Below the pieces are notes generated by a model. The model saw only the letters and a list, made by a program, of their open reading frames with translations, had not been told where the DNA came from and made no database searches. From the sequence record KM606994: a stretch of 64,000 bases of DNA. The stretch is one strand, 5' to 3'. This document shows, piece by piece, positions 36,349 to 38,461 of the stretch. The position numbers were made by a program, and so were the translations under genes. The stretch is from Escherichia phage RB3. Each line of letters begins with the position of its first letter. Within the stretch, counting starts at the first letter, position 1.

Positions 36349-36636
36349 TTACCATTTATGATAATACGTATTTACGATACATTCAAGACCCAAAGGATTC
36401 TTGAAAATATCATATTCAAGAGGACCTTTTTCTGTTTCAATAAAGAAATCAAAATTTACTATATTAAATTTACGGTCTTCCTTCACTAATTTAACCTGAG
36501 AAGATGAACGGTCAATGTAAACCTTTTCAACTTCAAAACATGTTAAAATGCCATAATCATCAATCAAGTCTTTAGCTGCTTCTTGATCATATTTATATCC
36601 ATTTTCAATGGATGATACTTTAGCATAAAGAATCAT
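36349..36636 (-). CDS. Hypothetical protein
   Basis: 95-aa ORF. Confidence 0.5.
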   Translation of the reverse strand: MILYAKVSSIENGYKYDQEAAKDLIDDYGILTCFEVEKVYIDRSSSQVKLVKEDRKFNIVNFDFFIETEKGPLEYDIFKNPLGLECIVNTYYHKW

Positions 36637-36638
36637 TA

Positions 36639-37049
36639 TCAGCCTCTATCAACGATAGTATGAGTATGGGCATTTACGATTTGCCACCAATCAAAGCGAT
36701 TGGAACCATAATCCGGTTTATTTTCATTTTCTTTAATGATATCACGTAGTTTATCTTCTGTTTCAGCATACGCAATTAAATCATCATATCCACCACAAGG
36801 ATAATAATTATCACCTGCAAATAAAAGAAAATTTACCTTAGATGGATTTACGTAATAATGATCTTTAGGGTATTTAGTTCCTCTCCAATCAGTTACTTCA
36901 ACATAACGATAAGAAAATCCATTTTTGCTTTCAATCCAACTCCACGCTTCAAAAGGAGTATTAAAAACTTTATCAGGTATTAAATTACCTTCAAAATGAG
37001 AAGGATTTGCATAATCCCCAGCATAAACATAATATTCGTTAATACTCAT
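36639..37049 (-). CDS. Hypothetical protein
   Basis: 136-aa ORF, rich in Tyr/Trp/Asp. Confidence 0.5.
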   Translation of the reverse strand: MSINEYYVYAGDYANPSHFEGNLIPDKVFNTPFEAWSWIESKNGFSYRYVEVTDWRGTKYPKDHYYVNPSKVNFLLFAGDNYYPCGGYDDLIAYAETEDKLRDIIKENENKPDYGSNRFDWWQIVNAHTHTIVDRG

Positions 37050-37235
37050 TTATTCACCTTTAGAAATTTTATCCATAACAATAGCGATTAAACCAATTAA
37101 AAATGCTACTACAAGTGAAAACACATTTTCTGCTGTAGTCAATAATCCGCATATAAATCCAACAAACATTGAAAAACTAAAAGCAGAAGCAGAAATTGCA
37201 ATAGCAACATTTCGAATTAATTCACAGCGTTTCAT
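37050..37235 (-). CDS. Small hydrophobic membrane protein
   Basis: ORF trimmed to the internal Met (MKRCELIRN...) because the upstream part overlaps the promoter; one or two TM helices. Confidence 0.45.
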   Translation of the reverse strand: MKRCELIRNVAIAISASAFSFSMFVGFICGLLTTAENVFSLVVAFLIGLIAIVMDKISKGE

Positions 37236-37248
37236 TTTATTCTCCTCG

Positions 37249-37293
37249 GTAGTTGATAGGGTAATAGTATCACTACTAAAACCCCATGTAAAC
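37249..37293 (-). promoter_or_regulatory. Early promoter cassette (variant)
   Basis: Plus strand gtagttgatagggtaatagtatcactactaaaaccccatgtaaac. Confidence 0.55.
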
Positions 37294-37311
37294 AACTTTG
37301 TGAATTATTTA

Positions 37312-37599
37312 TTACAAAAGATTTTTAGCAATAATCTTGAGATGTGCCGCAGAAATGTGTTTAGCTTTAAACAACGCAGTTTCTTCAGCAGGAGAGATAA
37401 CGATTGTAGCACCATCCTTTTTAGCAGACCACCCATCACCTAGGTAAACAGTACCTTTGATTTCTTCACCATCAACCAGACTAATCATCGGTTTACCTTC
37501 TCGTCCTTTATTTGCTTTAATAACTTCAGAAGTAAGAGTAGCTTCAGTAATAGTAGAAACCGGGGTAGTCGTAGAAGTAAATTCTTTGAAAGTTTTCAT
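37312..37599 (-). CDS. Internal-protein-like protein with capsid-targeting N-terminus (ipI-locus cassette)
   Basis: 95 aa; N-terminal MKTFKEF...ITE; own promoter. Confidence 0.6.
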   Translation of the reverse strand: MKTFKEFTSTTTPVSTITEATLTSEVIKANKGREGKPMISLVDGEEIKGTVYLGDGWSAKKDGATIVISPAEETALFKAKHISAAHLKIIAKNLL

Positions 37600-37625
37600 T
37601 TTATTTTCCTAATTAATTTTGATGA

Positions 37626-37659
37626 GATAATAGTATCATAACTAAAACCCCATGTAAAC
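37626..37659 (-). promoter_or_regulatory. Early promoter inside the repeated cassette
   Basis: Plus strand taatagtatca ... ccccatgtaaacaactttgtgaaattatttt. Confidence 0.55.
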
Positions 37660-37671
37660 AACTTTGTGAAA

Positions 37672-37929
37672 TTATTTTAAATCTTCTAATCGTTTCTTCA
37701 TCTTAGAACCATTTTTAGCGATTTCACCTGCATCGGAGCATAATGCTAAAAGTGCTTTAACTTTCGTTTGGTCTCCTTTAAAAGACGAAGGATCGACTGC
37801 AGCAGCAAGTTCTTTAATACGGGAGAAAAGACGCTCAGCTTCAGCTAAAGCCATTCCAAGCTTTACTTCCATACCGTGAGAAGATTCAGTGATAGTAGTT
37901 TTTGTAGCAAACTCTTTGAAAGTTTTCAT
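37672..37929 (-). CDS. Internal-protein-like protein with capsid-targeting N-terminus (ipI-locus cassette)
   Basis: 85 aa; N-terminal MKTFKEFATKTTITE; own promoter. Confidence 0.6.
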   Translation of the reverse strand: MKTFKEFATKTTITESSHGMEVKLGMALAEAERLFSRIKELAAAVDPSSFKGDQTKVKALLALCSDAGEIAKNGSKMKKRLEDLK

Positions 37930-37949
37930 TTTTATTTTCCTAATTAATT

Positions 37950-37990
37950 TTGATGAGGTAATAGTATCACTACCTCATCAGTATGTAAAC
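37950..37990 (-). promoter_or_regulatory. Early promoter with stem-loop (PeSL-like)
   Basis: Inverted repeat tgatgaggta...tacctcatca encloses the -10; gtaaac -35 on plus strand at 37985-37990. Confidence 0.55.
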
Positions 37991-38002
37991 AACTTTGTGA
38001 AA

Positions 38003-38461
38003 TTATTTTAAATCATCTGCCCAATCGAGTTTAAGAGGCTCTTTATATTCACGGTCAAGTACAACCGGAATTTGTACATCACCGCTAAATGATAAGGGCC
38101 CAACATTATAAGACAATGTTATATGCGGTGTGTAATCATCAAAATCATGTGTAGCACCTAGTGCCCGCGCATACATGTGTCGACAGCGCAGATATTCAGA
38201 ATCTAACACAAGTACAAGAGTCGATCCATCTTGTGTTTTCCATACTTCTAAATGTCCAGAAGAAGCTACTTCAAAACTTCCACTCGATGGAACATATGGA
38301 ACATTTACTCTCGAATAACATATAGTCGAATGAATTTTTTCTCTAGGAACTGGATTAGGAACACGTAAAGAGCGCTGGAGTTCTTCCAGCGCGTCAAGTG
38401 TTAATTCTGAAAACTTAGCTGCTACATAAAGACCCGTTGAAAAGTCTTTAAATTCCATCAT
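38003..38461 (-). CDS. 57B: Anti-CBASS 2H phosphodiesterase Acb1 (gp57B)
   Basis: 152 aa; two H-x-T/S motifs (HSTICYS, HITLSY); T4 57B-like sequence and position. Confidence 0.8.

Follow-up and report, generated by a model that had tools for sequence, protein, structure and literature searches.

This analysis concerns the ipI locus of Escherichia phage RB3, studied in a window of 64,000 nucleotides from sequence record KM606994, which is the whole stretch of DNA that was analysed and to which all positions below refer. Two small genes lie between 57B and trna.4: ip5 (37672-37929, minus strand), encoding a precursor of 85 amino acids, and ipI (37312-37599, minus strand), encoding one of 95 amino acids. 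The former is named after the Ip5 annotations of phages RB14, RB5 and T6, while the latter was recognised by its identity to T4 IPI and by matches in Pfam and the Protein Data Bank (PDB). A repeat containing an early promoter stands upstream of each gene, and a third copy of it precedes trna.4. The slot that holds the two genes is bordered upstream by 57B (38003-38461, minus strand) and downstream by trna.4 (37050-37235, minus strand; PHROG 1692), the product of which is hydrophobic (61 amino acids counted from the ATG; grand average of hydropathy, GRAVY, 1.22). Both borders are conserved, and both genes are annotated under these names in RB5, RB14 and T4.

The DNA from 36260 to 38470 is 100% identical to that of phages RB5, RB6, RB7 and RB10, 98.5% identical to that of RB14, and 96.7% identical to that of T4 over 91% of its length. 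Records of the RB5, RB14 and T4 type annotate trna.2, trna.3, trna.4, ipI, Ip5, 57B, 57A and gene 1 in this region, with T4 lacking Ip5. These annotations bear out the original prediction, made from the letters of the window, that an ipI-type locus lies between the tRNA array and 57B. All of the features described in that prediction are present at or near the coordinates it gave, on the minus strand, as are all genes in the internal-protein part of the window.

The product of ipI starts MKTFKEFTSTTTPVSTITE and shows 100% amino-acid identity to T4 IPI (NP_049749). The Pfam family PF11634 (IPI_T4, "nuclease inhibitor from bacteriophage T4") matches residues 20-95 with an E value of 7e-54 (180 bits, where the curated cut-off is 25) and over the full profile (positions 1-76 of 76), and the solved structure PDB 2JUB spans the same residues. 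Since both matches begin at residue 20, the mature protein, IPI*, starts after ITE19; the leader thus comprises residues 1-19 (37543-37599), and IPI* has 76 amino acids, a mass of 8.0 kDa and an isoelectric point (pI) of 9.0. IPI* has been described as a 76-residue injected inhibitor of GmrS/GmrD, an enzyme that cuts DNA containing glucosylated hydroxymethylcytosine (glucosyl-hmC), and its fold consists of two beta sheets with N- and C-terminal helices on the flanks (PMC3012670). The T4 proteins Ip1, Ip2 and Ip3 inhibit three different GmrSD enzymes, one apiece, and show no cross-protection (PMC12373910). Because the two proteins are identical, the anti-GmrSD function of T4 IPI can be taken as established for the ipI of the window as well.

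The product of ip5 starts MKTFKEFATKTTITE. Its leader comprises residues 1-15 (37885-37929), with cleavage predicted after ITE15, and the predicted mature Ip5 (70 amino acids, 7.5 kDa, pI 9.2) is close to IPI* in size and charge. Ip5 matches PHROG 3499, "internal head protein", with an E value of 1e-49, and is annotated by name in RB14, RB32, T6 and other phages; a note in the RB14 record reads "similar to RB15 T6 T2 RB51 RB70 Ip5", and one in that of T6 states "Ip5 ... replaces ipI". The name reportedly comes from Repoila et al. in 1994 (EMBO J 13:4181). By tblastn, mature Ip5 was found in 493 phage records, 267 of them at 90% identity or more, including T2, T6 and RB32, while the other 226, from RB69-type phages, were below 60% (about 52-54% among the matches listed). 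The mature parts from T6, T2, RB32 and numerous other phages are 98.6-100% identical to that in the window, and the gene occupies the same place beside 57B.

Searches with Ip5 gave no informative relatives outside the T4-like phages, either by sequence or by structure. A word-indexed protein search returned only five near-identical proteins, and an exhaustive one found three cluster representatives among 1.8 billion clusters, so that the family appears confined to T4-like phages; nothing significant was found in the PDB or in Pfam, and PF11634 was not matched. The AlphaFold2 model, only moderately confident (predicted local distance difference test, pLDDT, 71) and built from a shallow alignment, as no deep alignment of Ip5 was possible, shows a disordered leader and two long antiparallel helices (17-44 and 54-84). 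When this model was compared with the PDB by Foldseek, only generic antiparallel helical hairpins were retrieved (the LSD1 tower, designed proteins), none with an E value of 0.001 or lower.

Both products begin with MKTFKEF, with the aromatic residues F4 and F7, and both leaders end in ITE (ITE19 in IPI, ITE15 in Ip5). In BLASTP, residues 1-26 of IPI aligned with residues 1-22 of Ip5, and nothing alignable was found between the mature parts. The propeptides of internal proteins, 10-19 residues long, are capsid-targeting sequences in which residues 4 and 7 matter, and the gp21 prohead protease cuts after L/I-x-E (PMC9026906). The two genes therefore share the marks of internal-protein genes: a leader similar to MKTYQEFIAE in which positions 4 and 7 are aromatic, an L/I-x-E end, and a position at one of the two internal-protein loci, which are the 57B-tRNA interval and the region next to gene e. 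The capsid-targeting and cleavage signature that had been proposed for this locus (MKTFKEF...TE) was indeed seen in both translations, its I-x-E being the gp21 motif. The mature parts had been called unrelated, and this held for structure as well as for alignment, with the 2JUB fold of IPI* on one side and the predicted two-helix hairpin of Ip5 on the other.

A repeat search detected a family of 89 nucleotides (nt) in three copies, at 37233-37321, 37599-37687 and 37930-38018. The second and third of these are 88% identical without gaps and, past an indel of 1 nt, their similarity runs on to 37565 and 37895, respectively, within coding sequence. BLAST within the window aligned 37583-37683 with 37913-38014 (89.2% over 102 nt, E value 3.5e-26). 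The three copies, all on the minus strand, are here called A, B and C. Copy A, upstream of ip5 (37913-38014; at lower identity 37895-38018), is 89% identical to copy B, and contains, in order, an AT-rich block near the stop codon, the -35 box, a hairpin with the -10 box, the 5' untranslated region (5'UTR), the Shine-Dalgarno sequence and the first codons. Copy B, upstream of ipI (37583-37683; extended 37565-37687), is chimeric. Copy C lies upstream of trna.4 and has a core (37262-37304) that is 95% identical to copy B over 43 nt, falling to 65% over 37233-37321. Direct repeats of ~95 nt before each cassette had been proposed, and they proved real, with a length nearer 100-125 nt; the partial third copy, given as ~37249-37320, was likewise found.

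Each copy contains an early promoter of the sigma-70 type, detected by a promoter scan on the minus strand: at 37961-37989 for ip5 (PE2 of the T4 record X03016), at 37630-37658 for ipI, and at 37264-37292 in the copy before trna.4 (PE1 in X03016). All three have TTTACA, a spacer of 17 nt and TACTAT, with TG ahead of the -10 box and the AT-rich stretch TTTAAAATAATTT before the promoter. The promoter sites and the leader codons thus lie inside the repeats, as had been claimed. The similarity also extends beyond the generic early-promoter consensus: outside the ip locus, the best matches in the window were only 19-20 nt long (6505-6523 and 34939-34958), and these correspond to the generic block of upstream region and -35 box, as against 102 nt between copies A and B.

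Hairpins covering the -10 box are characteristic of this locus. Hairpin A (37951-37980, minus strand) has the arms TGATGAGGTA (37951-37960) and TACCTCATCA (37971-37980), with the -10 box in the loop and the right arm; as RNA it forms a stem of 13 bp, and its 73-nt stretch has a z-score of -5.35, matched by none of 200 mononucleotide shuffles. Hairpin B (37622-37653, minus strand; z -3.0) has a weakened chimeric stem with G-U pairs, its 36-nt core folding at -9.6 kcal/mol, and hairpin C (37256-37287, minus strand) has a z-score of -2.8. The inverted repeat around the -10 box that had been noted at 37950-37990 was therefore confirmed, although it is not restricted to that copy, since the other two fold as well, more weakly. 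In the T4 record X03016, of 1985, a "pot. stem-loop" is annotated overlapping both PE2 and PE1, and the second is called "pot. IpI terminator".

The same property was found beyond the window. A relative of 57B is encoded in 36 loci of the IMG/VR collection, and 33 loci of adequate length, the window counted in, were analysed. RNAalifold, applied to a MAFFT alignment of 32 locus promoters, gave no consensus pairs, the stems being in different registers between promoter types, and the test used instead was folding of each sequence against its shuffles and against other promoter-like sites of the window. For 41 distinct promoters that occupy this slot in the 33 loci, the minimum free energy of the 36-nt core averaged -11.0 kcal/mol, the median z was -4.4 and 80% of the z values lay below -2. 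At nine other early-promoter-like sites in the window the average was -3.2 kcal/mol and the median z -0.5, and only one of the nine lay below -2. The outer stem sequences vary with promoter type, and include GAUGAGG/CCUCAUC, AGGG/CCCU, GGUCUAUAG/CUAUAGACC and GAUGGGAUAA/UUAUCCCAUC. One of the promoter blocks (L020, 6177-6250; IMGVR_UViG_2706796299_000001) carries a tandem duplication of the segment comprising the -10 box and the right arm (GATACTATTACCTCATCAAGATACTATTACCTCATCAA), which may be the footprint of slippage or of unequal exchange inside the hairpin.

The content of the slot differs among related phages. Compared with the window, T4 lacks exactly ip5 and one repeat, an indel of 331 bp bounded by the repeats, with flanks about 97% identical; its single repeat before ipI matches copy A through the promoter, the hairpin and the 5'UTR up to ATGAAAAC. 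The order is 57B-ipI in T4, 57B-Ip5-Ip6 in T6, 57B-Ip5-Ip7 in T2, and 57B-Ip5-IpI in the window phage and RB14, while in RB69 a relative of Ip5 lies between e and denV, at the second internal-protein locus. The ip5-ipI junction was present in 10 of 50,697 phage records, and part of it was shared by 537. In the 33 loci the interval between 57B and trna.4 holds at least 0-3 open reading frames (ORFs) with a leader, these counts being lower bounds because a few divergent leaders escaped the motif search. Sixteen families without detectable similarity in their mature parts account for the 55 products of the slot. In many of the loci (L011, L015, L017, L020, L022-L025, L027, L028, L030-L032, L037, L038 and L040; ~5453-5456) the first leader ORF starts on the stop codon of 57B, without an intergenic promoter block, and thus not every cassette brings its own promoter.

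The promoter copy before ipI is a chimera. The left arm of copy B, ATGGGGTTTTAGT, is of the type seen in copy C and in the copies that follow ip5 in T6 and T2, and its right arm with the 5'UTR, TCTCATCAAAATTAATTAGGAAAAT, is of the type of copy A and T4. T6, T2 and the window share a constant sequence that starts at the end of ip5 and includes the left arm, while the right arm and the 5'UTR track the downstream gene. The chimera therefore places either a crossover or a conversion-tract end within the ~12 nt between the arms (GTGATACTATTA), that is, in the -10 box and loop. The junctions ip5-ipI, ip5-ip6 and ip5-ip7 together provide a clean natural example that locates the crossover between the arms of a promoter hairpin.

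Taken together, these observations identify the region, with a high degree of confidence, as a T4-like phage's ipI locus, a hypervariable site of internal-protein genes, in which the cassettes ip5 and ipI stand between 57B and trna.4 and are exchanged by way of their repeats. On the protein side, the leader MKTFKEF...ITE would send each precursor into the scaffold core of the prohead, and gp21 cleavage after I-x-E would free the small basic proteins IPI* (76 amino acids) and Ip5 (70 amino acids), which would be packed with the DNA and then injected with it. In the new host IPI* blocks GmrSD, the type IV restriction enzyme that acts on glucosyl-hmC DNA in E. coli CT596, as shown for the identical T4 protein, and Ip5 may be an injected inhibitor of another host defence. 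On the DNA side, the block of ~100-125 nt gives each cassette its own early promoter and, being repeated, would supply homology for the gain, loss and exchange of cassettes between co-infecting T-even phages, a modular shuffling of the type proposed for promoter-early stem-loop (PeSL) elements. Junctions produced by such shuffling would be expected to cluster, either in the blocks TTTAAAATAATTTCACAAAGTTGTTTACAT and GTGATACTATTA or within the 5'UTR and the leader.

Several points weigh against this interpretation. For Ip5, the packaging in virions, the cleavage after ITE15 and the injection are suggested by the leader (F4, F7, ITE) and by the family annotation, whereas for T4 IPI, the identical counterpart of the ipI product here, virion presence, processing and injection are established. 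The literature consulted reports no target for Ip5, and the text describing a screen of ten further ip genes is silent on whether Ip5 was included. The identity block between the arms measures ~12 nt, which is little for homologous recombination, and the chimera could instead mark the end of a conversion tract. The z-scores of the hairpins come from mononucleotide shuffles only, and the sequences compared are related by descent. Finally, the stems in the window copies are not followed by a U-run, and a terminator scan revealed no terminator-like site.

The last point bears on a different view of the hairpin, namely that it is primarily a regulatory RNA or DNA element, acting in attenuation or processing of read-through transcripts or in promoter modulation, with its link to the breakpoints a by-product of conservation. 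This is quite possible, if somewhat short of probable. The stems are maintained with different sequences across promoter types, the PeSL stem-loops of RB49 and phi1 lowered the expression of a reporter roughly to the same extent as a strong terminator does (PMC2839356), and the label in X03016 points the same way. A role as intrinsic terminators is, however, not supported for the window copies, which have no U-run and no match in the scan, and late synthesis of the internal proteins would presumably need read-through across the hairpins. A late-promoter motif, TATAAATA, was found by motif search inside gene 1 (39044-39051, minus strand), at the position of PL1 in X03016, and late read-through from it across 57A, 57B, ip5 and ipI probably supplies the protein that is packaged. 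The regulatory role is also compatible with cassette exchange through the repeats and does not exclude it. A second TATAAATA motif lies at 36590-36597 (minus strand), near the 5' end of trna.2 and just downstream of trna.3, and corresponds to the PL2 site of X03016.

The function of Ip5 was considered separately. Both products had been put forward as candidate anti-defence effectors; for IPI, being T4 IPI, that role is established, while Ip5 belongs to a named family whose role is a matter of inference. On the best guess, a marginally probable one, Ip5 is injected into the host and inhibits a further nuclease there that acts on modified DNA; the most likely target class would be a different GmrSD-type enzyme. 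A structural or DNA-associated role for packaged Ip5, such as charge neutralisation or help in ejection, appears unlikely. Mature Ip5 is small and basic (pI 9.2) and, in keeping with such a role, lysines of internal proteins contact packaged DNA (PMC3012670); moreover, the ten further ip genes yielded no new inhibitory pair with five further GmrSD systems (PMC12373910). Against it, ip5 is dispensable and patchily distributed, T4 being without it, and its family is found only in T4-like phages; the slot hosts 16 unrelated families, and each of the three internal proteins of T4 to which a role has been assigned is a specific inhibitor of GmrSD.

The weakest alternative, that ip5 and ipI are tandem paralogues from a local duplication, with diverged mature parts and repeats that are remnants of purifying selection rather than sites of exchange, accounts for the conservation of precisely the functional parts (promoter, 5'UTR and leader codons) and for the similar size and charge of mature IPI* and Ip5, but is very improbable, given the lack of alignable mature similarity between a protein of beta sheets and helices (PMC3012670) and a predicted two-helix hairpin, the three different downstream partners of Ip5 in T6, T2 and the window and its different locus in RB69-type phages, the clean repeat-bounded indel of T4 in DNA that is otherwise ~97% identical, and the hairpins of the chimeric junction.

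In transcription order, the genes upstream of the cassettes are gene 1 (38688-39413, minus strand), which is first, and 57A (38458-38688, minus strand), which is second, followed by 57B. The product of 57B matches Pfam PF23474, Acb1, an inhibitor of CBASS (antiphage signalling based on cyclic oligonucleotides), with an E value of 2.7e-60, so that the ip slot lies directly downstream of another anti-defence gene, and acb1, ip5 and ipI stand in a row as genes with a known or suspected role against host defence. In many records 57B is labelled "RNA ligase" or hypothetical despite this match. The location of Ip5 beside 57B/acb1 (anti-CBASS) and ipI (anti-GmrSD) also suggests a broader, rather improbable proposal, in which Ip5 inhibits a host defence other than GmrSD and the 57B-ip slot is a general anti-defence island that exchanges its contents by crossovers in the promoter hairpins.

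Downstream of the cassettes and trna.4 are trna.3 (36639-37049, minus strand; 136 amino acids, PHROG 1411) and trna.2 (36349-36636, minus strand; 95 amino acids, PHROG 2023), both conserved T4-type genes in families listed as of unknown function. The two ORFs and the small membrane protein that had been described as lying next to the cassettes are thus present, although they are not unassigned, being the T4 genes trna.2, trna.3 and trna.4. At least three N-terminal types of trna.3 (MSINEYYVYAGDY..., MNVEYYVYADYENN... and MYKVYADYQANPS...) occur in the window and related loci, and extra small ORFs are inserted around it in related phages; the variability therefore reaches beyond the internal-protein cassettes. 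Ten tRNA genes (35424-36251, minus strand) are last in transcription order, as compared with eight in T4, with tRNA-Asn and tRNA-Tyr at the position of the T4 homing-endonuclease gene segB. The tRNA called tRNA-Met (CAT) by ARAGORN is tRNA-Ile in the annotation of T4 and RB14.

A third ORF with a leader, MKTYQEFITEA..., was observed between e and vs.8 (30350-30823, minus strand; 157 amino acids), and is annotated as Ip4 in RB5. On the T4 map, ipII, ipIII and denV lie between e and vs.8; in the window phage none of the three is annotated in that interval.

The locus itself is already known, its two products being the IPI of T4 and a member of the named Ip5 family, and nothing was found beyond what is annotated or published. 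The repeats with promoter and stem-loop were annotated in T4 in 1985 (X03016) and were brought under the general PeSL concept in 2010; this locus is not discussed by Petrov et al. 2010 (PMC2993671). The locus is a textbook case of the arms race between phage and host, in which a conserved delivery tag is carried by interchangeable injected inhibitors. Ip5, which is present in 493 phage records including T2 and T6, is a well-defined candidate for screens of defence inhibitors.

Among known systems, the closest is the IPI locus of T4 (PF11634, 2JUB), which has the same protein, the same neighbours on both sides, if the extra ip5 is set aside, and, on the downstream side, the same promoter and hairpin. 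It differs in that the promoter copy of ipI in the window is chimeric and that ip5 stands between ipI and 57B. The Ip5 proteins of T2, T6, RB14, RB15, RB32, RB51 and RB70 (PHROG 3499) share the mature part and the position adjacent to 57B, whereas the downstream partner in the window is ipI, instead of ip6 as in T6 or ip7 as in T2. The T4 proteins Ip2 and Ip3, from the second internal-protein locus (Silas et al. 2025, PMC12373910), have a similar leader and are likewise small injected proteins with unrelated mature parts; neither is annotated at its T4 position in the window phage, where Ip4 is found instead.

The arrangement of the repeats was also compared with that of the PeSL cassettes, in which a stem-loop lies between the -35 and -10 boxes or overlaps the -10 box, and for which the loop was reported as the site of recombination in RB49 (Arbiol et al. 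2010, PMC2839356). The layout of promoter and hairpin at the ip locus fits this description, in agreement with the resemblance suggested by the original prediction. In contrast to the PeSLs of RB49 and phi1, the stems of which are of the polyG...polyC kind, the stems here are A/T-rich and overlap the -10 box, and the block extends into coding sequence because it includes the capsid-targeting leader. In both systems (PMC2839356; Comeau et al. 2014, PMC4122927) a strong sigma-70-type promoter follows an AT-rich upstream region, a stem-loop is located between the -35 and -10 boxes or over the latter, and a Shine-Dalgarno sequence and start codon are found at the 3' end; about 100 nt are conserved, the blocks flank small non-essential genes in a variable region, and indels between close relatives are bounded by the blocks, with the crossover in the loop. 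At the ip locus of RB3, these features appear as early promoters with their AT-rich upstream region, as three stem-loops (z -5.35, -3.0 and -2.8), and as a block that bounds the indel between T4 and the window, the three alternative partners of Ip5 and the chimeric junction.

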